Shown in pieces: positions 1-8,454 of a stretch of 8,454 nucleotides of DNA (the stretch's first letter is position 1; every line of letters starts with the position of its first letter). The DNA comes from Escherichia phage If1, in the sequence record NC_001954.1; one strand, 5' to 3'. Both the position numbers and the translations under genes were made by a program. The notes below the pieces were generated by a model. That model was not told where the DNA came from, made no database searches, and was given only the letters and a program-made list of their open reading frames with translations.

Positions 1-291
1 ATGAGTGAGTTAGGAAATCTGGAAACCACTGTTACCGGAAAAATCAAACGATTTAATAACGGCGGCGGCTATTATTACACTACAGTGGTTTCTCCTGCCG
101 CTGACGCATATAGTTTCCCTCCAGTTATACGCATTAAGTCCAAGAAATCACTTGGCCGTGTGGGGGATGAGATAGCAGATATTCACTGCCGAATTACAGG
201 TTATGAACGTAGCTTTCCATATACAGATAAACAAACAGGTGAGCAATCCCGTGGTTTTAACGTAGACATGCTTCTTGAACTTCTGGAATAA
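1..291 (+). CDS. V: Gene V product, ssDNA-binding protein (by position and size; weak sequence resemblance)
   Basis: 96-aa ORF directly upstream of the VII/IX/VIII block. Its stop TAA (289-291) is followed by ACATG of gene VII, matching the Ff TAACATG junction. SD-like AAGGTG (8444-8449) lies at the window 3' end, 4-5 nt before the ATG at 1 when the sequence is circularised. The frame is closed upstream by TGA at 8434-8436. Confidence 0.6.
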   Translation: MSELGNLETTVTGKIKRFNNGGGYYYTTVVSPAADAYSFPPVIRIKSKKSLGRVGDEIADIHCRITGYERSFPYTDKQTGEQSRGFNVDMLLELLE

Positions 292-293
292 AC

Positions 294-392
294 ATGTCTG
301 CAACAGACTTCGATTCTCTGTATCAATTAATATTTAATGCCGGGCTTGTTATTTGTTTTGGCCTTGGCGTTATTAGTGGTGGTCAAAGATGA
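294..392 (+). CDS. VII: Gene VII minor coat protein (virion tip)
   Basis: 32 aa, MSATDFDSLYQLIFNAGLVICFGLGVISGGQR. Close to M13 pVII as I recall it (MEQVADFDTIYQAMIQISVVLCFALGIIAGGQR). Not in the ORF track because it is short. Its stop overlaps the gene IX start (ATGA at 389-392). Confidence 0.85.
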   Translation: MSATDFDSLYQLIFNAGLVICFGLGVISGGQR

Positions 393-487
393 GTGCACTA
401 TCTTACTTCTTTGCTGCTTATTGTATTGGATGGGTTATATCCCATTCTATTCTGGTGTTTAAAAAACTATCTGAGGTTTCAACATGA
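389..487 (+). CDS. IX: Gene IX minor coat protein (virion tip)
   Basis: 32 aa, MSALSYFFAAYCIGWVISHSILVFKKLSEVST. Hydrophobic, same length and position as M13 pIX. ATGA overlap with gene VIII start (484-487). Confidence 0.8.
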   Translation: MSALSYFFAAYCIGWVISHSILVFKKLSEVST

Positions 488-708
488 AAAAATCAGTCGT
501 TGCAAAAATCATTGCTGGCTCAACTCTGGTTATTGGTTCATCTGCCTTTGCAGCAGATGATGCAACCAGTCAGGCTAAAGCTGCTTTTGATTCTTTAACC
601 GCTCAGGCAACCGAAATGTCCGGGTACGCATGGGCGCTTGTTGTTCTTGTTGTTGGTGCTACGGTGGGAATTAAGCTCTTTAAGAAATTTGTAAGCCGCG
701 CATCCTAA
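484..708 (+). CDS. VIII: Gene VIII major coat protein (procoat with signal peptide)
   Basis: 74 aa with signal peptide, acidic N-terminal segment (AADDATSQAKAAFDSL), hydrophobic core (YAWALVVLVVGATVGI) and basic C-terminus (KLFKKFVSRAS). Near-collinear with M13 pVIII as recalled. Confidence 0.95.
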   Translation: MKKSVVAKIIAGSTLVIGSSAFAADDATSQAKAAFDSLTAQATEMSGYAWALVVLVVGATVGIKLFKKFVSRAS

Positions 709-739
709 TTCAACATTATTTCGCTTCAACCATTCATTT

Positions 740-763
740 GGGTGGCGTCTGCCACCCCTTATT
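740..763 (+). terminator. Rho-independent terminator-like hairpin after gene VIII
   Basis: GGGTGGC(740-746)-GTCT-GCCACCC(751-757), a perfect 7-bp GC-rich stem, followed by CTTATT. Same position as the strong terminator after gene VIII in Ff phages. Confidence 0.55.
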
Positions 764-775
764 AAGGTAGCATAA

Positions 776-2158
776 ATGAAGAAAATAATTATTGCTTTAT
801 TTTTTGCTCCTTTCTTTACCCATGCAACTACAGACGCTGAATGTTTAAGTAAACCCGCATTTGATGGCACATTAAGTAATGTCTGGAAAGAAGGAGACTC
901 ACGTTATGCAAATTTTGAAAACTGCATTTACGAACTTTCGGGTATTGGTATCGGTTATGATAATGATACTTCGTGTAATGGGCACTGGACGCCTGTTCGT
1001 GCTGCTGATGGCTCTGGCAATGGTGGTGATGATAATTCATCTGGCGGGGGTAGTAATGGAGACTCAGGAAACAATTCTACGCCAGATACAGTAACACCCG
1101 GGCAGACTGTGAATTTACCGTCTGACTTATCTACTCTGAGCATTCCTGCTAATGTGGTTAAATCTGACTCAATAGGTTCTCAGTTTTCGCTTTATACAAA
1201 TGCCAGTTGCACAATGTGTTCAGGGTATTATCTGTCTAACAATGCTGATTCAATTGCCATTGCTAACATTACGGAAACGGTAAAGGCTGATTATAACCAG
1301 CCTGATATGTGGTTTGAGCAAACCGACAGTGACGGCAATCATGTTAAAATACTACAGAACAGTTATAAGGCTGTTTCTTATAATGTGGAATCAAAACAAT
1401 CTGACGTGAATAACCCGACATACATTAACTATTCTTATTCCGTTAATGTAAAACAAGTTTCCTATGACACATCAAATGTCTGCATAATGAACTGGGAAAC
1501 TTTTCAGAATAAGTGTGATGCCTCACGTGCTGTTTTGATAACTGATACGGTTACGCCATCTTATTCCAGAAATATAACGATACAGTCGAATATTAATTAT
1601 CAGGGTAGCAACGGGTCAGGCGGGTCAGGCGGGTCAGGCGGGTCAGGCAATGATGGTGGCGGAACCGGGAATAATGGCAACGGAACAGGTGATTTTGATT
1701 ACGTCAAAATGGCAAACGCCAATAAAGATGCACTGACTGAATCATTTGACTTGTCAGCTTTGCAGGCCGATACCGGGGCATCTCTTGATGGTTCTGTACA
1801 GGGAACACTGGATTCTTTAAGCGGGTTTTCCGACAGCATAGGTGGACTTGTTGGCAACGGCTCTGCAATTTCTGGTGAGTTTGCAGGTTCATCAGCTGCT
1901 ATGAATGCAATTGGTGAGGGTGACAAATCGCCTCTGCTGGACTCGCTCTCATTTCTGAAAGACGGATTATTTCCTGCCTTACCTGAATTTAAACAATGTA
2001 CACCATTTGTATTTGCTCCCGGCAAAGAGTACGAATTTATTATTGAGTGCAAATACATTGATATGTTTAAAGGGATTTTTGCTTTCATATTATATTTCTG
2101 GACATTCGTTACTGTTTACGATTCTTTTTCTGGAATATTACGTAAGGGAAGGGGATAA
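776..2158 (+). CDS. III: Gene III minor coat / adsorption protein
   Basis: 460 aa with N-terminal signal peptide. N1-like segment (AECLSKP...[16 protein letters not shown]) resembles the M13 g3p N1 domain. Two Gly/Ser-rich linkers. C-terminal domain ([18 protein letters not shown]...[44 protein letters not shown]) is collinear with the M13 g3p C-terminal anchor. Confidence 0.95.
1613..1648 (+). repeat. Perfect 4x tandem 9-bp repeat (GGGTCAGGC) encoding the (GSG)n linker within gene III
   Basis: Units at 1613-1621, 1622-1630, 1631-1639 and 1640-1648, read directly from the sequence. Confidence 0.9.
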
Positions 2159-2160
2159 CC

Positions 2161-2502
2161 ATGCCAGTTTTTCTGGGGCTTCCTGTTCTGGCAAGATTTA
2201 TTGGATGGCTTGCAGGTGCTCTTATTGCATACGTTGCAAAATTTTTCACATTGGGAATCGCCAGAATAGCACTTGCAATTTCGCTATTTCTTGGCCTTAT
2301 TATCGGTCTGAATGGATTGTTAGTTTCTTATCTTTCAGACCTTACTTCTGTATTGCCACCTGAAATTGCCAGCGCAGTCTCTTATGTTGTTCCGGCTAAT
2401 GCTGCGCCGTGTTTGTATGCGATTTTTTCTCTTAAAGCAGCAGTTTTTATTTTTGACGTTAAAGACAGAATTATAGGATATCTTGACTGGAATAAATCAT
2501 AA
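2161..2502 (+). CDS. VI: Gene VI minor coat protein
   Basis: 113 aa hydrophobic protein (MPVFLGLPVLARF...AISLFLGLIIGLN...YLDWNKS), collinear with M13 pVI. Stop TAA (2500-2502) shares one base with the gene I ATG (2502-2504). Confidence 0.9.
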   Translation: MPVFLGLPVLARFIGWLAGALIAYVAKFFTLGIARIALAISLFLGLIIGLNGLLVSYLSDLTSVLPPEIASAVSYVVPANAAPCLYAIFSLKAAVFIFDVKDRIIGYLDWNKS

Positions 2503-3563
2503 TGGCTGTATATGTCGTAACGGGAAAACTTGGTGCAGGTAAAACACTTGTCGCTGTCGGTAAAATCCAGGACAAAATTGTTTCTGGTTGCAGGGTGGCT
2601 ACGAATCTCGATTTGCGCATTCATAAGCTACCGAGAGTGGGTATATTTGCAAAGTCACCGGATGTAATACGGATACCTGATAAACCATCACTGGATGACT
2701 TACTGGCAATCGGGAGAGGCAATAATTCCTATGATGAAAATAAAAATGGATTACTGGTTCTTGATGAATGTGGGACATGGTTTAACTCACGCTCATGGGC
2801 TGATAAAGAAAGACAGTCCGTAATTAACTGGTTTTTACATGCCAGAAAACTGGGCTGGGATATTATTTTTCTTATTCAGGATTTATCCATCATGGATAAG
2901 CAAGCTCGTGTGGCACTGGCAGAGCATGTCGTTTATTGCCGACGCCTCGATAAAATCACAATTCCATTTATTGGCTCAATTTATAGTGTAATAACGGGAT
3001 CAAAACTTCCGCTACCAAAAGTACATGTCGGGATTGTTAAATATGGTGACTCTCCGCAGTCAATGACCGTAGAACGCTGGACTTATACGGGGCGTGACCT
3101 TTATGCCGCTTATGATACCAAACAGGCATTTTCAGATGCTTATGAGCATTCATCATTTTCATACCTGACACCATATCTTTCACATGGCAGGTATGCCGTA
3201 AAGAGGGACGCTACGTTTTATATGAGACTCACCAGAATCTATTTAAAGAAATATTCCAGAGTATTGTGCCTGTTTTGTGGTTTTGTATCAGCATTCACGT
3301 ACCTCAGTCTGTCCAAGCCGGAAGCGACACCTCAGATAAAACCAGTAACGACGCAGATTATCACATCCCGTTATAAACCATCAGAGTTGAGAATAACAAC
3401 ATCATATCGAATGGGAAATGCAGTTGGTTTTGAGTTTATGGATGCGAAGAAGCAAAAAATTGCATCTGACGATCTAATTAAAGACGGTTTTCGCATGGTC
3501 TATATAACACCTTGTTCGGTAGAGCTTATTAAGGATGGGAAACATGAAAAAGTTACTTGCTAG
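2502..3563 (+). CDS. I: Gene I assembly protein (Zot-like NTPase)
   Basis: 353 aa. Walker A GKLGAGKT near the N-terminus. Extensive collinearity with M13 pI (e.g. NGLLVLDECGTWFN, HARKLGWDIIFL, LTPYLSHGRY). Internal transmembrane segment (RVLCLFCGFVSAFTYLSL). Confidence 0.95.
   Translation: MAVYVVTGKLGAGKTLVAVGKIQDKIVSGCRVATNLDLRIHKLPRVGIFAKSPDVIRIPDKPSLDDLLAIGRGNNSYDENKNGLLVLDECGTWFNSRSWADKERQSVINWFLHARKLGWDIIFLIQDLSIMDKQARVALAEHVVYCRRLDKITIPFIGSIYSVITGSKLPLPKVHVGIVKYGDSPQSMTVERWTYTGRDLYAAYDTKQAFSDAYEHSSFSYLTPYLSHGRYAVKRDATFYMRLTRIYLKKYSRVLCLFCGFVSAFTYLSLSKPEATPQIKPVTTQIITSRYKPSELRITTSYRMGNAVGFEFMDAKKQKIASDDLIKDGFRMVYITPCSVELIKDGKHEKVTC
3222..3563 (+). CDS. XI: Gene XI product (in-frame internal start within gene I)
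   Basis: In-frame ATG at 3222 is codon 241 of gene I, the same relative position as the M13 pXI start (M13 ...KMKLTKIYLKK vs here ...YMRLTRIYLKK). Translation start not verifiable from sequence. Confidence 0.45.
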   Translation: MRLTRIYLKKYSRVLCLFCGFVSAFTYLSLSKPEATPQIKPVTTQIITSRYKPSELRITTSYRMGNAVGFEFMDAKKQKIASDDLIKDGFRMVYITPCSVELIKDGKHEKVTC

Positions 3564-4833
3564 TTTGCTTTGTGTATTGTCATTTCAGAGCTTTGCTATC
3601 CCTGTTGAACTGAATAATGCGCCAGTAAGGGAGTTTGTTTCATGGTATTCAAAAACAACCGGAAAGCCTGTGATTATTTCACCAGACGTAAAAGGGGAAA
3701 TTACGGTTTACTCAGCGGATGTCACCAAAGATGAACTGCCTCAGTTTTTTACTTCGGTTCTCCGGGCGAACGGTTTTGACCTCAGTCCGGGTAATCCTGC
3801 TGTGGTTCAAAAATTTAACCGTAATACGTATGAATATTCCGATTCTTTCTCAGAGCCGGTTCCGGCATCTTCTTATGATGGTGATGTTCCTCCTCCAACT
3901 GGAGACTTTTTCACTAAACCTGAGATACGTGCCAATTTGATTACTCAGACGTATCCGGTCAATAACGTCAGAGCAAAGGATCTCGCACCTGTTATTGATA
4001 TATTCCTGAAGGGGGAAAATATTGCTGGTACTAAAGTTTATCCTTTGATGGGGCGAATATTCTTGCTTGTAACGGCATCAGCATCACAACACAAAGAACT
4101 TGCAGCATTTTTTCCTTCTGTTGATGTGCCAAGAACTCAGGTTCTTGTTGAATCAGTCATTTTTGAAACAACGGCTTCCGATGGTTTTGATTTTTCATTT
4201 GCTGCGGGGGATCCTTCCGGCAGTCCGGTTGCGGGAGGGATCAATACTGACCGTCTCACGTCTGTTTTATCCAGCACTGGCGGTTCCTTTGGTATTTTTA
4301 ACGGGAACATTCTGGGGCTTAGCCTGAAAGCGCTTGAAACATCGAGTAAATCAACGCTTTTATCAATGCCACGCATTCTGACGATGTCAGGTCAACCAGG
4401 AACATTTACAGCAGGGCAAAATGTTCCTTTTGTGACGGGGCGGGTTACGGGAGAAGCTGCAAATGTTAACAATCCATTCCAGACGATCGAACGTCATGAT
4501 GTGGGGATCTCACTGAAGGTTGTTCCGGTCGTGACACCCGGAGGATTGTTAATCATGGATGTTTCGACAAATGCGGATAGTATTTCTGATTCGCAAACGG
4601 CTTCTGACATCATCACAAATACACGCTCAATTTCGACAACCGTTCAGCTAAAATCAGGCCAGACAGTTCTGCTTGGCGGGATGGTAGATAACAGGGAAAG
4701 CGACAGTGATTCATCTGTACCGTGGGTATCAAAAATTCCCTTAATTGGTGCGCTTTTCACGTCCAAAAGCTCAAATGCCAACAAGCGCACGCTGTACATT
4801 CTCATTCGCGCCCGCGTCGTTAACCTGCTTTAA
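3544..4833 (+). CDS. IV: Gene IV secretin (virion export channel)
   Basis: 429 aa from ATG 3544 (MKKLLASLLCVLSFQSFA signal peptide), with AAGGA at 3530-3534 upstream. The ORF track opens at 3535 (432 aa). Strong collinearity with M13 pIV, including the secretin C-domain (VPFVTGRVTGEAANVNNPFQTIERHDVGISLKV...SKIPLIGALF). Confidence 0.95.
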   Translation: MKKLLASLLCVLSFQSFAIPVELNNAPVREFVSWYSKTTGKPVIISPDVKGEITVYSADVTKDELPQFFTSVLRANGFDLSPGNPAVVQKFNRNTYEYSDSFSEPVPASSYDGDVPPPTGDFFTKPEIRANLITQTYPVNNVRAKDLAPVIDIFLKGENIAGTKVYPLMGRIFLLVTASASQHKELAAFFPSVDVPRTQVLVESVIFETTASDGFDFSFAAGDPSGSPVAGGINTDRLTSVLSSTGGSFGIFNGNILGLSLKALETSSKSTLLSMPRILTMSGQPGTFTAGQNVPFVTGRVTGEAANVNNPFQTIERHDVGISLKVVPVVTPGGLLIMDVSTNADSISDSQTASDIITNTRSISTTVQLKSGQTVLLGGMVDNRESDSDSSVPWVSKIPLIGALFTSKSSNANKRTLYILIRARVVNLL

Positions 4834-4929
4834 TCCCGTAGCACCGGCGTTCTCCCTGCGCAGCGGGGGGAACGTTGGTGAGAAGGGCGCTCAGACAGGA
4901 AAATCCCTCCCGATTATCAGGTGGAACAA

Positions 4930-4947
4930 ATCCTGTTTTCACAGGAT
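4930..4947 (+). other. Stem-loop in the gene IV-proximal intergenic region (candidate packaging-signal or minus-strand-origin structure)
   Basis: ATCCTGT(4930-4936)-TTTC-ACAGGAT(4941-4947), a perfect 7-bp stem with a tetraloop and no following T-tract. Confidence 0.35.
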
Positions 4948-5060
4948 ATACAGTAAGACTCACATCATCATAAATACAAAGCGAGACGGGTATCGTAAGA
5001 GTTGCCATGTAGCATTTCCTTTGTGCTGTTGAATTTGTGGGTGCATTTGCACGCGAAGCG

Positions 5061-5085
5061 GTTCGGGGTTCTGTGACACCCGAAC
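5061..5085 (+). other. Stem-loop (7-bp stem, 11-nt loop) in the intergenic region
   Basis: GTTCGGG(5061-5067)...CCCGAAC(5079-5085), read directly from the sequence. Confidence 0.35.
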
Positions 5086-5088
5086 TTT

Positions 5089-5112
5089 ACCGTGGTTTCC
5101 CACGGTATTTTT
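5089..5112 (+). terminator. Plus-strand rho-independent terminator candidate
   Basis: ACCGTGG(5089-5095)-TTTC-CCACGGT(5100-5106) followed by A then T5 (5108-5112). On the minus strand the hairpin is not followed by a T-run, so it is directional (+). It lies immediately before the 3' end of the minus-strand ORF at 5119. Confidence 0.55.
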
Positions 5113-5118
5113 CTAATC

Positions 5119-5310
5119 TTACTCGCTGGACTTGGTTGTGTGAATCAGATCCTTTTCTGTATCTTTTGCATAATTATCAATCAGATGATTAACGATATCA
5201 GTCCAAGTGATCGCACGTCCAGCGGTATGACTGGCATCGATCGCCAGCCGTTCGAGTTTTAGCTTTCGTTCAGCCACGATAGCCATAGTTGTTCGTTTTG
5301 GAGTTGCCAT
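5119..5310 (-). CDS. Small ribbon-helix-helix-like DNA-binding protein (putative regulator; function unknown)
   Basis: 63 aa from ATG (reverse complement of 5308-5310): MATPKRTTMAIVAERKLKLERLAIDASHTAGRAITWTDIVNHLIDNYAKDTEKDLIHTTKSSE. Short N-terminal beta-strand-like segment (RTTMAIV) followed by two predicted helices, as in the CopG/Arc/MetJ pattern. GGAAG lies 5 nt upstream of the ATG. The ORF track starts at an upstream TTG (5322). The only clearly antisense gene relative to the phage operons. Confidence 0.45.
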   Translation of the reverse strand: MATPKRTTMAIVAERKLKLERLAIDASHTAGRAITWTDIVNHLIDNYAKDTEKDLIHTTKSSE

Positions 5311-5329
5311 CTTAACTTCCAAAGGGTAC

Positions 5330-5379
5330 TCCCGCCGACATAAGGCGGGAGGGGAATTTGGACGGGCTTGAAAAGCCCG
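5330..5379 (+). repeat. Left-end subterminal hairpins of the IS (candidate TnpA recognition structures)
   Basis: Hairpin 1: TCCCGCC(5330-5336)-GACATAA-GGCGGGA(5344-5350). Hairpin 2: CGGGCTT(5363-5369)-GAA-AAGCCCG(5373-5379). They lie just downstream of the tnpA stop (5388-5390 on the minus strand) and are separated by a G-rich motif GGGAGGGGAA. Confidence 0.5.
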
Positions 5380-5387
5380 AAGGGTGA

Positions 5388-5768
5388 TCAGCCACGCTGA
5401 TGTTGAATGTATTGCCTAACAACTTCCAGCGGCGCACCTCCGCAGGAGCCAGCAAAGTATGACCTAGACCAGAGCACGGCTTTTCCGTATGCCCCCCGCA
5501 AATCAAGAAATTCGTTTCGCAGACGGCGGGATGTCACTGCTTTCAGTGAGTTAACCAGTACCGAAAGCTGCACTGTTGGTGGGTATTCGATCAGCATGTG
5601 GACATCATCGTACGTCTCCGTTACTTTCTTTAAGTTCCTCGCCCCAAAATCACGGCAGCACTTCTGCCTGCATACTGATGAAATGGCTGCACAGTGTAAC
5701 TCTCCCAGTATCTTTCGACGGTATTTTGTTACAAAGACGAAGATGAACATGCAAAAGGAAGGCAGCAT
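5388..5768 (-). CDS. tnpA: IS200/IS605-family Y1 (HuH) transposase TnpA
   Basis: 126 aa from ATG (reverse complement of 5766-5768); the track ORF opens at TTG 5831. Core motifs present: ...FVTKYRRK..., ...DDVHMLIEYPP... (HuH-region) and ...LWSRSYFAGSCGGAPLEVVRQYIQHQ (catalytic Tyr region). The first His of the HuH motif reads as Asp (D-V-H). Confidence 0.85.
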   Translation of the reverse strand: MLPSFCMFIFVFVTKYRRKILGELHCAAISSVCRQKCCRDFGARNLKKVTETYDDVHMLIEYPPTVQLSVLVNSLKAVTSRRLRNEFLDLRGAYGKAVLWSRSYFAGSCGGAPLEVVRQYIQHQRG

Positions 5769-5852
5769 GTCTTGAACGATTGATTTTATATTTTTGCATT
5801 GAGGTTGGCCGTAAAAGCAGTAATATTGCAAGAAAATCTAGCTACACACTGA

Positions 5853-6143
5853 ATGATGATGCTAATCCTGAAAGCCTACAAATTCAGACTGGAACCAACG
5901 CCTGAACAGTCGCAGCGTTTGCGGCAGTTATGCGGTTGCGCCCGTTTTGTCTGGAATTTAGGTCTTGCGGAGACAAAGCGCATACTTGACTCAGGCGAAA
6001 AGTTACCTTCGGCTTTCGAGTTGAACCGGAGTGATTACAGTGTGGAAAAAAATGCCGGAATACATCTTCTTACAGGATGCCTATACCGACAATCTGCAAC
6101 AAAAGCTGAAAGACCTGCATACCGCATGGAAACGTTGTTTTGA
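5853..6143 (+). CDS. tnpB: tnpB N-terminal fragment (frame 0), out of frame with the main tnpB body
   Basis: Starts ATGATGATG. MMMLILKAYKFRLEPTPEQSQRLRQLCGCARFVWNLGLAE matches the canonical TnpB/OrfB N-terminal signature (KAYKFRLxPTxEQ...GCARFVWN). Only about the first 60 aa look genuine; the rest of the frame runs to a stop at 6141-6143. Confidence 0.7.
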   Translation: MMMLILKAYKFRLEPTPEQSQRLRQLCGCARFVWNLGLAETKRILDSGEKLPSAFELNRSDYSVEKNAGIHLLTGCLYRQSATKAERPAYRMETLF

Positions 6144-7086
6144 TAAAAAGCTCGCAGCTAAGGCTCCGGTATGGAAACGAAAAAATGAGGGCAGAGACTC
6201 AATCCGTTTTGTGAACTTTGAGAAATATTGCTGCCTTGAAAATCGCAGAGTGAAGCTACCGTCAGGTCTTGGGTGGGTAAAATTCCGGCAATCTCAACGT
6301 GTGAACGGTAAAATCAAAAATGCGACAATCAGTCAGTTAGCGGGACAGTGGTATATCTCGTTTCAGGTTGAAATTGAAACGGCAGAACCAAATCACACAA
6401 GCACAACGATAGTCGGTCTGGATGCTGGCGTGGCTAAACTCGCCACGCTGTCAGATGGCACAGTCTTTGAACCTGTAAACAGTTTTCAGAAAAACCAGAA
6501 GAAGCTGGCGAGACTTCAGCGACAGTTAAGCCGCAAGGTCAAATTCAGCAACAACTGGCAGAAGCAGAAACGCAAAATACAGTGTCTGCATTCCCGTATC
6601 GCAAATATCCGCAGAGACTACCTTCATAAAGTCACAACGACCGTCAGCAAAAACCACGCAATGATAGTCATTGAGGATTTGAAGGTCAGCAACATGTCAA
6701 AGTCAGCAGCGGGTACGGTCAGCCAGCCGGGGCGCAATGTCCGGGCAAAATCAGGTTTAAACCGTTCGATACTGGATCAGGGCTGGTATGAAATGCGCCG
6801 CCAGCTTGAGTACAAACAGCTCTGGCGTGGAGGTCAGGTGCTTGCTGTTCCGCCAGCGTACACAAGCCAGCGTTGCGCGTGCTGTGGTCATACAGCGAAA
6901 GAAAACCGCCTGTCACAAAGTCAATTCAGATGCCAGGTATGTGGATATACAGCGAACGCCGATGTAAATGGCGCTCGTAACATTTTAGCGGCGGGGCACG
7001 CCGTACTTGCCTGTGGAGGGACGATGCAGTCAGACCGCCCGTTGAAGCAGGAACCAGACGCTGAGCAATCAGCCGTCACCCACTAA
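6031..7086 (+). CDS. tnpB: tnpB main body: RuvC-like, zinc-finger RNA-guided endonuclease (IS605 OrfB / OMEGA TnpB)
   Basis: 351 aa in frame +1 relative to the N-terminal fragment. RuvC-I (IVGLDAGV), RuvC-II (MIVIEDLKV), zinc finger (CACCGH...CQVCGY) and RuvC-III ([10 protein letters not shown]) all present. Frame opens just after TGA at 6022-6024, with first start-like codon GTG at 6031. Combined with the N-terminal fragment the protein would be about 410 aa. Confidence 0.85.
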
Positions 7087-7091
7087 TGGGA

Positions 7092-7132
7092 ATCCCCCTC
7101 CTGAGTCACGAAGTGCGAAGGTGGGGGAGGAT
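7092..7132 (+). repeat. Right-end imperfect palindrome / G-rich motif of the IS (candidate RE structure and omega-RNA scaffold 3' region)
   Basis: ATCCCCCTCC (7092-7101) ... GGTGGGGGAGGAT (7120-7132), 6-13 nt after the tnpB stop. It can form an imperfect stem with bulges. It resembles the left-end motif GGCGGGAGGGGAA at 5344-5356. Confidence 0.4.
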
Positions 7133-7140
7133 GTCAATCC

Positions 7141-7315
7141 ACACCTCAGTAGTTTTCTGCTGGCATAAAGCTAAACACTTATGCTCTCCAGTCGTATTCT
7201 GCCGTCATTATAGTTAAACACTTATGCGCTCATATCATTATGCTTGTATACATGCGTAATGCGTGATAGATTTTTGTCATTTCGTAACTGCATACATGTA
7301 TAGGGTGAGTGTTCA
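7141..7315 (+). promoter_or_regulatory. Gene II-proximal intergenic region: candidate plus-strand origin, gene II promoter and operator
   Basis: AT-rich. 13-bp direct repeat TAAACACTTATGC at 7172-7184 and 7215-7227. Palindromes TGTATACA (7245-7252) and ATACATGTAT (7292-7301). Possible -35 TTGTCA (7274-7279). SD-like GGGTGAG before the ATG at 7316. Same position as the plus-strand origin and gene II promoter in Ff phages. Confidence 0.45.
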
Positions 7316-7537
7316 ATGTTTTTTGACTGGCTGACTATTGAACAGGATTTTGGCTTTCAGCTACCGATTTTGAGTGATGTTGCCTATCAGCGCATCCACC
7401 TCGAAAGCGGGGAAGCGTCAGCTCTGAGTCAGCCAACTTTTCAGCACAAAGGATCTTTTTGTGATGGTTGTTTCGATCTCTATCCGAGGCTCATTGCTGA
7501 AAGTCTCTGGAAATCCTTCCCGGTGGGGGCGTCTTGA
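7316..7537 (+). CDS. II: Gene II replication initiator, N-terminal segment (frame 2), ahead of an apparent frameshift
   Basis: MFFDWLTIEQDFGFQLPILSDVAYQRIHLESGEASALSQPTFQHKGSF... Start and N-terminal pattern resemble M13 pII (MIDMLVLRLPF...). The genuine part probably ends at F48 (7457-7459); the track ORF continues out of frame to 7537. Confidence 0.7.
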   Translation: MFFDWLTIEQDFGFQLPILSDVAYQRIHLESGEASALSQPTFQHKGSFCDGCFDLYPRLIAESLWKSFPVGAS

Positions 7538-8432
7538 TAATTTATTTGGCCTTCCAACTTTGGATTCCTGTGTATCGGTTTTCAATACGATCCTTGCTGA
7601 AATAGGTTTACCTCAGTTTACGAAATGTAAGAGGCTTATGCCCGGCCAGGCAAAAGAGAATGAGAAAGCACCTCTTGTTGCTGACGGTGCAATTATTAAA
7701 GAAGTACATATCACCTCGAACAGGGCGGCAGGTAAGGGGAATGAAGATGACTATATTTCAGGTTTATCTACGCAACCCTACAGGAACAGCGTTCCACGGC
7801 TACACTCCAATGGAAAATCCGTTGACTGGCTGTCTAAAAAAGGCAATGTAAACCTCATATATCCAACGGTTTACAATAAAGCTCATGAAATGGAACTCCA
7901 TTCTTTGACAAAGATAAAGAATCGTTTTTCCGAACAATCTCGGGAATACAATTACCTACTCGATATTATATCTTTCTGCAAAGAGAATGGGGTCGTAAGG
8001 TTTGAGCAAAAGCTGAAATCCAGATTTTTGCAAAAGAATGCGCTCAATTACTGGGGGCTTTCTGATTATTCCATTTTAAATAAGTTACATTCTGATTTTC
8101 TTGAACTTGATAAAAAGTTATCGGTGAATGCTATGGACTTTGAAACTATCAGTGATCATCTTGTAAGTAGTGGGGTTGTTGAAACCACCCGTGCAGCAAA
8201 TACTACCGCAATGTATGCAATACAGTGGTTTCACGGTCATGTATTTGACTTCAACAAAAAACAGGTTCAGACACATCGGGCGCGGTTACGAAAAATTGGT
8301 ATCGACATTGCGCAGAAATGCAATGTTTCTAAATTCTCTCCTGTGATTGTGAAACAAACACGGGAAATTAAGGTGCAGGAGTGCGTTGCACCATCATGGT
8401 ATGTACGTCCGTCACATTTACGCGTTGCATAG
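7461..8432 (+). CDS. II: Gene II replication initiator (rolling-circle nickase), main body (frame 0)
   Basis: 323 aa. SISIRGSLLKVSGNPSRWG aligns with M13 pII CVEIKASPAKVLQGHNVFG, and RFEQKLKSRFLQKNAL with M13 RFEARIKTRYLKSF. Stop TAG at 8430-8432. Frame opens after TGA at 7425-7427. Confidence 0.9.
   Translation: MMVVSISIRGSLLKVSGNPSRWGRLDNLFGLPTLDSCVSVFNTILAEIGLPQFTKCKRLMPGQAKENEKAPLVADGAIIKEVHITSNRAAGKGNEDDYISGLSTQPYRNSVPRLHSNGKSVDWLSKKGNVNLIYPTVYNKAHEMELHSLTKIKNRFSEQSREYNYLLDIISFCKENGVVRFEQKLKSRFLQKNALNYWGLSDYSILNKLHSDFLELDKKLSVNAMDFETISDHLVSSGVVETTRAANTTAMYAIQWFHGHVFDFNKKQVQTHRARLRKIGIDIAQKCNVSKFSPVIVKQTREIKVQECVAPSWYVRPSHLRVA
8133..8432 (+). CDS. X: Gene X product (in-frame internal start within gene II)
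   Basis: In-frame ATG at 8133 (MDFETISDHL...) preceded by GGTGA at 8123-8127. 99 aa. Same relative position and size as M13 pX (111 aa). Confidence 0.5.
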   Translation: MDFETISDHLVSSGVVETTRAANTTAMYAIQWFHGHVFDFNKKQVQTHRARLRKIGIDIAQKCNVSKFSPVIVKQTREIKVQECVAPSWYVRPSHLRVA

Positions 8433-8454
8433 TTGATTAATAAAAGGTGTTTAT

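Follow-up and report, generated by a model that had tools for sequence, protein, structure and literature searches.

Among the described systems close to the phage considered here are the Ff inoviruses (M13, fd and f1), in which pII nicks inside the loop of the origin hairpin. Ff phages are not known to integrate into a chromosome. Integration at dif by way of XerCD is a property of inoviruses of the CTXphi, VGJphi and YpfPhi/CUS-1 type. For phage If1, the source of the pili that are used is the IncI plasmid group, and primers were designed by Lin et al. on the If1 sequence NC_001954 (PMC3102678).

Identity and gene content of the window

The DNA analysed here (the window, i.e., the whole stretch of 8,454 nt) was byte-identical to a stand-alone IMG/VR record of the same length (IMGVR_UViG_638275991_000001). 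The RefSeq record of If1 is presumably also 8,454 nt long and circular. Two 27-nt If1 g3p primers matched the window with 0 mismatches at 811-837 and 1529-1555, and the window Rep was 52.4% identical to that of phage phiAFP1, which is the value published by the authors of phiAFP1 for their Rep against If1p10. Judged by these identities, the window can be taken as the complete genome of the known phage If1 (genus Infulavirus, Inoviridae), which is specific for I pili, and no difference between the window and If1 was detectable. Since the complete circular genome of this phage was known before and is present in public databases, the finding is in itself ordinary. Searches by megablast and blastn of an annotated phage collection that lacked the If1 record, performed with the window and with its joined ends, returned only an insertion sequence (IS) and a 62-nt patch, while megablast against 5,426 complete E. 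coli genomes returned the IS only and no integrated backbone.

The core inovirus genes were all present in one copy each, as indicated by the ORF map, Pfam and PHROGs. Genes V, VII, IX, VIII, III, VI, I and IV occupied positions 1-4833 and II(X) occupied 7316-8432, all on the + strand. The features of the window are as follows.

1-291, + strand: gene V, ssDNA-binding protein of 96 aa (phrog_8473, 'single strand DNA binding protein', E 3.6e-41), located after Rep in all relatives
294-392, + strand: gene VII, minor coat protein of 32 aa (phrog_7781, E 2.8e-16; 54% identical to M13 pVII)
389-487, + strand: gene IX, minor coat protein of 32 aa (phrog_10143, E 6e-4; 41% identical to M13 pIX)
484-708, + strand: gene VIII, major coat protein of 74 aa (Pfam Phage_coatGP8, E 3.9e-28; 57% identical to M13)
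776-2158, + strand: gene III, adsorption protein of 460 aa with a (GGS)n linker (Pfam Phage_Coat_A, E 1.2e-31; matched by the If1 primers)
2161-2502, + strand: gene VI, minor coat protein of 113 aa (Pfam DUF5455, E 3.8e-21; 54% identical to M13 pVI)
2502-3563, + strand: gene I, Zot-type assembly ATPase of 353 aa (Pfam Zot, E 1.9e-44; 65% identical to M13 pI)
3544-4833, + strand: gene IV, secretin of 429 aa from ATG 3544 (Pfam Secretin, GspD N0 and Secretin_N)
4842-4880, + strand: 18-bp hairpin directly 3' of gene IV (DNA fold of 4834-5118, z-score -3.2)
4930-4932: deletion junction with ATC microhomology, where the window lacks 2,558 nt of the prophage unit
5061-5106, + strand: two-hairpin element (hairpin 1, 5061-5085; hairpin 2, 5089-5106)
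5119-5310, - strand: 63-aa ORF, a candidate small regulator divergent from gene II, with its ATG (5310-5308) abutting the IS end
5311-7137, + strand: IS200/IS605-family IS of 1,827 nt (tnpA 5388-5831, - strand; tnpB 5853-7086, + strand, split in the record)
7138-7315: non-coding stretch that precedes gene II; its prophage counterpart separates rep from the 63-aa ORF divergent to it
7316-8432, + strand: gene II, rolling-circle initiator of the G2P family (Pfam G2P_X_C, E 4.9e-25; Phage_CRI, E 6.4e-5)
8133-8432, + strand: candidate gene X, 99 aa, from an in-frame internal start of gene II preceded by GGTGA, in a position analogous to that of M13 gene X
8433-8454, + strand: spacer of 22 nt between gene II and gene V, which holds TGA 8434-8436 and the Shine-Dalgarno (SD)-like AAGGTG 8444-8449

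The start of gene IV was 3535 in the ORF list, but the SD duplex was stronger for 3544 (-8.8 kcal/mol) and the corresponding prophage gene was called as 429 aa. Expression of gene X would be compatible with the SD-like duplex of -6.0 kcal/mol that precedes it and with the match of G2P_X_C to residues 10-94 (E 4.6e-26). Gene V gave no match in Pfam, and the PDB matches of pV to artificial alphaRep repeat proteins that appeared in a sequence search were disregarded as spurious.

Within gene III, the copy number of the (GGS)n linker (window 1600-1680) differed between If1 and the related prophages described below, for which pIII ranged from 452 to 485 aa. The receptor-binding part of pIII was the same in If1 and the prophages except for residue 67, which is C in the window and W in the prophages (T976G). 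Swapping of receptor-binding domains, considered as a reason for the lack of a stored Pfam match to prophage pIII, was rejected because the proteins differed only in (GGS)n copy number and this one residue.

The joint between the record ends and the candidate origin

The earlier note had described the window as a circular genome opened at the start of gene V, with the end of gene II at 8432, a TGA at 8434-8436 and AAGGTG at 8444-8449, and all three landmarks were present at these positions. Gene II terminated in TAG (8430-8432), which closes the reading frame 7461-8432, and TGA 8434-8436 was in frame with the ATG at position 1 and 21 nt upstream of it. None of the codons between the two (TTA, ATA, AAA, GGT, GTT and TAT) is a start codon, which fixes the beginning of gene V at position 1. 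Although the TGA closes the frame, its presence alone is statistically unremarkable. The GGTG of AAGGTG 8444-8449 ended 5 nt 5' of ATG 1, and the site was predicted to pair with the 3' end of 16S rRNA at -6.4 kcal/mol, a value in the range found for other genes of the window, i.e., gVIII (-6.8), gIX (-6.1) and gII (-7.5 kcal/mol). On the + strand, AAGGTG occurred 3 times and GGTG 34 times, and the chance of GGTG falling in the correct slot of 6-8 nt was approximately 2-3%. These features point to AAGGTG 8444-8449 as an SD-like site at which translation of gene V would be initiated.

The window ends in the 25 bases TAGTTGATTAATAAAAGGTGTTTAT and begins with ATGAGTGAG, so that the joint reads TTGATTAATAAAAGGTGTTTAT|ATGAGTGAG. 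No ORF of at least 20 aa was found to span the joined ends on either strand, and no terminal redundancy or terminal repeat was found at the window ends. The contiguity of position 8454 with position 1 was evident from near-identical copies. Thus, in five Enterobacter loci of 99.2-100% identity, the equivalent of window 7132-8454 ran without a gap into that of window 1-4932; in L007, for example, these stretches correspond to 8679-10000 and 10001-14908. Loci L004 and L008 were 100% identical to the window from 7666 and 7718, respectively, to 8454 and continued gap-free into window position 1. The 22-nt spacer, together with both flanks, was identical, internal and contiguous in L004, L007, L008, L020 and L021, and the spacer was also identical in two further viral contigs. 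A 36-mer that spans 8454|1 was matched exactly in three other viral contigs. In all nine of the relatives examined, which ranged in Rep identity from 99% down to 45%, the rep stop was followed by an ORF of 93-112 aa, the gap being 8-22 nt in seven cases and approximately 180 nt in the other two. This contiguity, the 36-mer matches and the layout in relatives indicate that the joint is real and exact and that the junction of window end and start is a database convention, the circle having been written out from the first base of gene V. The claim of a circular genome opened at this base is borne out by the same copies and by the identical stand-alone record; circularity of this molecule is what its relatives and its identity with If1 would predict.

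Two structures were noted between gene IV and the 63-aa ORF. The 18-bp hairpin at 4842-4880 is, from its correspondence in position to Ff hairpin A, a candidate terminator or packaging signal. In the two-hairpin element at 5061-5106, hairpin 1 consisted of a 7-bp stem and a nearly invariant 11-nt loop (GTTCTGTGACA), while in hairpin 2 six of seven pairs were changed on both sides with pairing kept, i.e., in a compensatory manner. This element was 94-97% conserved in relatives with rep DNA that was just 70-83% identical, and its conservation extended to Alteromonas phage phiAFP1 and to relatives in Pectobacterium and Kluyvera. By analogy and by conservation it may represent the plus-strand origin, with a putative nick site in the loop of hairpin 1 (predicted as GTTCTGT|GACA). 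Such a candidate origin would support the view, argued also in the earlier note, that the window is a complete replicon and not a chromosomal fragment, a view with which the single set of core inovirus genes and the lack of any detected host flank or other chromosomal sequence in the window agree.

Loss of the attP module and insertion of an IS element

The exact 96-aa product of gene V was encoded in many bacterial chromosomes. In loci L004-L013 (Enterobacter), prophages approximately 99.5% identical to If1 were located at the chromosomal dif (e.g., L007 6975-16170), often as head-to-tail arrays of at least two units, with a unit length of 9,263 nt. A perfect dif (GGTGCGCATAATGTATATTATGTTAAAT) was present at the right end of the prophage in L004 and L007-L010, and GGTGCGCATAATGT|TCCACACGTTATGTTGAAA formed the left and inter-unit junctions, i.e., attP. 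Distant relatives in Pectobacterium, in Kluyvera and in one viral contig also ended in arms that resemble GGTGCGCATAATGT. One prophage host was E. asburiae AP024281, and two other loci had flanks that were 100% identical. Host identity rests on AP024281 and these flanks, since a scan of species-representative genomes with Rep returned 4 loci and 0 of the 99% relatives. In L005, L006 and L013, there were units with additional IS insertions or with split genes.

Compared with the prophage unit, the window lacked 2,558 nt at the ATC microhomology of 4930-4932. The missing stretch, which corresponds in L007 to 14909-16156 and 6975-8302, contains a HicB-like gene, a 51-aa gene, the dif-like attP, genes of 159 and 122 aa (the latter HTH) and most of a 133-aa gene. 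The opposite interpretation, an insertion of 2.56 kb in the prophages, was rejected, since the breakpoint truncates the 133-aa gene in the window and the distant relatives have dif-like ends; the difference is thus a deletion in If1. A 30-mer across the deletion junction was found in IMG/VR solely in the window's own record. No dif-like site was found in the window at up to 8 mismatches to the 28-bp dif, and the only ORFs above 180 aa were gIII, gI, gIV, tnpB and gII, which leaves no room for an integrase. The earlier statement that neither integrase nor attachment site is needed was therefore correct in that both are absent, but it holds only because attP was lost with the 2,558 nt deleted at 4930-4932, the closest relatives being dif-integrated prophages. 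On this comparison, the If1 lineage is integrative and the absence of an attachment site in the window is a derived state.

The second structural difference from the prophages was the element at 5311-7137. Its tnpA product matched Pfam Y1_Tnp (E 1.2e-27), and the intact TnpB of a plasmid copy 99.5% identical to the element was matched by OrfB_IS605, Cas12f1-like_TNB and HTH_OrfB_IS605. The IS was inserted 3' of GCCAT without target duplication (GCCAT|IS|TCCAC), the empty site in prophages being GGAGTTGCCAT|TCCACACC (GCCAT|TCCAC), and the same GCCAT was present to the left of the plasmid copy. With a Y1 (HUH) TnpA, a TnpB/OrfB and insertion 3' of its target without duplication, the element is by these features a member of the IS200/IS605 family. 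Since this family transposes via ssDNA, a ssDNA phage genome is a plausible target for it. The nearest copies (99.5%) were on IncI-type conjugative plasmids (MPF_I), adjoining excA.

The point of insertion was the base adjoining the ATG of the 63-aa minus-strand ORF, which in prophages is divergent from rep. This ORF matched phrog_2503 (E 5.4e-27), a 63-aa gene was called at the same place in all prophages, and the gene in the same position in phiAFP1 is annotated as 'putative regulator', from which a regulatory role for the product may be supposed. With the IS present, the ORF (minus strand, 5119-5322) gains an upstream in-frame TTG in the IS end (MEVK-MATPK...).

The window contained single-base indels relative to its otherwise near-identical copies. 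Compared with the plasmid copy, the IS contained 1 substitution and 9 single-base insertions (5611-6031), all of them extra bases in the window, and from such a ratio base-calling errors in an old record are more likely than divergence. Compared with prophage copies, gene IV contained a compensating -1/+1 pair at 4044/4067. Gene II in the record was in two frames, 7316 to approximately 7465 and then 7461-8432, separated by an extra G at 7466. Alignments of the Rep proteins of relatives switched from frame 7316-7462 to frame 7470-8423, and the prophage copy of gene II was an intact ORF of 371 aa without G at 7466. In view of the indel pattern elsewhere in the same record, the gene II frameshift is probably a sequencing error; if it were real, the genome would be incapable of replicating by itself. 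A further single-base indel relative to near-identical copies was noted at window 5052. In all, about a dozen single-base errors seem to be present in the If1 reference. As a result, gene II, tnpA and tnpB are broken and gene IV is shifted locally, with effects on annotation and phylogeny built on this reference.

Three other explanations of the window were weighed against these results. That it represents one unit cut from a chromosomal tandem prophage array, and not a free replicon, is suggested by the occurrence of the exact pV protein and of a backbone at least 99% identical in Enterobacter chromosomes, and by the frequency of head-to-tail arrays at dif, from which a single unit would likewise seem to circularise. 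Every such unit, however, was approximately 9.26 kb long and carried the 2,558-nt attP module that the window lacks, and none had an IS at the site occupied in the window. The restriction of the deletion-junction 30-mer in IMG/VR to the window's own stand-alone record, the start of the window exactly on an ATG with no host flank, and the match to the If1 primers are also contrary to this origin, which was already disfavoured and which we consider extremely unlikely. A few bases missing from or duplicated at 8454|1 through assembly of the record might be expected from the occurrence of other single-base errors, but the gap-free continuation of the 100% identical L004 and L008 into window position 1, the exact 36-mer matches over the joint in three other viral contigs and the absence of a terminal repeat reduce the probability of an inexact joint to almost nothing.

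A real circle could also be that of a defective variant, dependent on a helper or on the laboratory and not an autonomous complete replicon, with a genuine frameshift in gene II, a regulator severed from its promoter and a deleted lysogeny module. The splitting of rep by the extra G at 7466, the position of the IS against the start codon of the 63-aa ORF and the 2.56-kb deletion are all in keeping with such a variant. On the other hand, If1 has been propagated as a viable phage. The excess of extra bases over substitutions in the IS (9 to 1) is that of base-calling error, and alongside the self-compensating -1/+1 pair in gene IV the single G in rep is most simply another error of this type. 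If1 DNA has, moreover, served as a template for PCR (PMC3102678). A defective genome was accordingly judged to be very improbable, if somewhat less so than the previous two explanations.

The interpretation that is very probably correct is that If1 is a covalently closed circular ssDNA replicon, with a record linearised at gene V and position 8454 joined to position 1. The circle would comprise V-VII-IX-VIII-III-VI-I-IV, an intergenic region and II(X), in one copy each, the intergenic region consisting of the hairpin that follows gene IV, the two-hairpin candidate origin, the small divergent ORF and the IS200/IS605 element. The 22 nt between gene II and gene V would supply the ribosome-binding site of gene V, as at the II-V junction of Ff. 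Replication would be of the rolling-circle type, with pII nicking the loop of the origin hairpin, pV would sequester ssDNA, and pI and pIV would extrude the virion. Chromosomal integration would not occur, since the dif-like attP of the relatives has been deleted.

A tentative account of how this state arose is that If1 was not always an episomal Ff-like phage but arose very recently as an escape form of a temperate, dif-integrating prophage of the E. asburiae type (approximately 99.5% DNA identity), and became obligately episomal through the deletion and the IS. A microhomology-mediated deletion of 2,558 nt would have eliminated attP together with four to five genes for lysogeny or accessory functions, and insertion of the IS at the start codon of the small rep-divergent ORF would have severed this ORF from its promoter. 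The source of the IS may have been an IncI plasmid of the propagation host, by ssDNA transposition into the phage genome. Both structural events, the deletion and the IS insertion, are established by comparison with the prophages; that they caused the non-integrating, productive lifestyle is a proposal, possible but open to considerable doubt. A search of the literature library used here found no report of deletion of the attP module or of IS insertion in If1, nor any description of the record errors or of the candidate origin.

The IS also has consequences for the use of If1 as a reference. Metagenomic surveys (e.g., PMC11406975) have reported a high abundance of 'Escherichia virus If1' and its correlation with E. 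coli. The IS makes up 22% of the If1 reference and was matched in 5,026 of 5,426 complete E. coli genomes, and because of this, gut metagenome reads that map to "If1" may count E. coli copies of the IS, or Enterobacter prophages, and not the phage.

Comparison with known inoviruses

The window shares with Ff (M13, fd and f1) the gene order II(X)-V-VII-IX-VIII-III-VI-I-IV-IG, which, with all genes on one strand, matches annotated M13 and is the organisation of Ff-type Inoviridae. The adjacency of rep and the ssDNA-binding gene across the record ends, noted in near-identical copies and in the nine relatives, is as expected of a circular genome of this organisation. Recovery of the Ff order on joining of the ends, as claimed in the earlier note, was correct, but genes II and V are not Ff-like in sequence. 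The proteins pVII, pIX, pVIII, pVI, pI and pIV and the C-terminal part of pIII were 41-65% identical to those of M13, whereas pII was only 24% identical to M13 pII over 178 aa (E 0.001, NC_003287 translation) and a comparison of pV with M13 pV gave no HSP, i.e., no detectable similarity. Going by pII and pV homology, the window falls outside the Ff species group, though it would be Ff-like in its working. With morphogenesis genes at 41-65% to M13, a barely alignable pII and an unalignable pV, the If1 genome is, in terms of sequence affinity, a mosaic of an Ff-like morphogenesis module and a replication module of different affinity.

A short spacer between genes II and V is common to both, being 11 nt in M13 and 22 nt in the window. 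In the M13 origin, hairpin D (GAGTCCAC-GTTCTTTAATA-GTGGACTC) directly precedes a second hairpin; its stem is as long as that of hairpin 1 of the window and, as there, its loop is an 11-nt GTTCT... sequence. Unlike Ff, the window genome bears an IS. The earlier suggestion of a comparison with the length of Ff-like genomes was fruitful to the extent that the genome without the IS (6,627 nt) is near the 6,407 nt of M13; the excess is the IS and not phage DNA.

The nearest annotated relatives of the replication module were phiAFP1, the Dulem viruses and oral inovirus contigs ('Inovirus D_HF'). Their Rep proteins were 51-53% identical to that of the window, and they have in common with it the order origin-like element, small minus-strand gene, rep and ssDNA-binding gene, while their ssDNA-binding and structural genes differ from those of the window. 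The module also groups with Pseudomonas inoviruses annotated RstA1.

With the dif/XerCD inoviruses, the Enterobacter relatives of If1 share the location at dif, a perfect dif on the right side, tandem arrays and the lack of a phage integrase, and by this likeness they may well use XerCD. The window itself differs from these phages in that it has no dif-like attP and is not beside a chromosomal dif. In its descent from dif-integrating prophages, If1 is unlike Ff, and this lineage changes the view of a classical "non-temperate" model inovirus.
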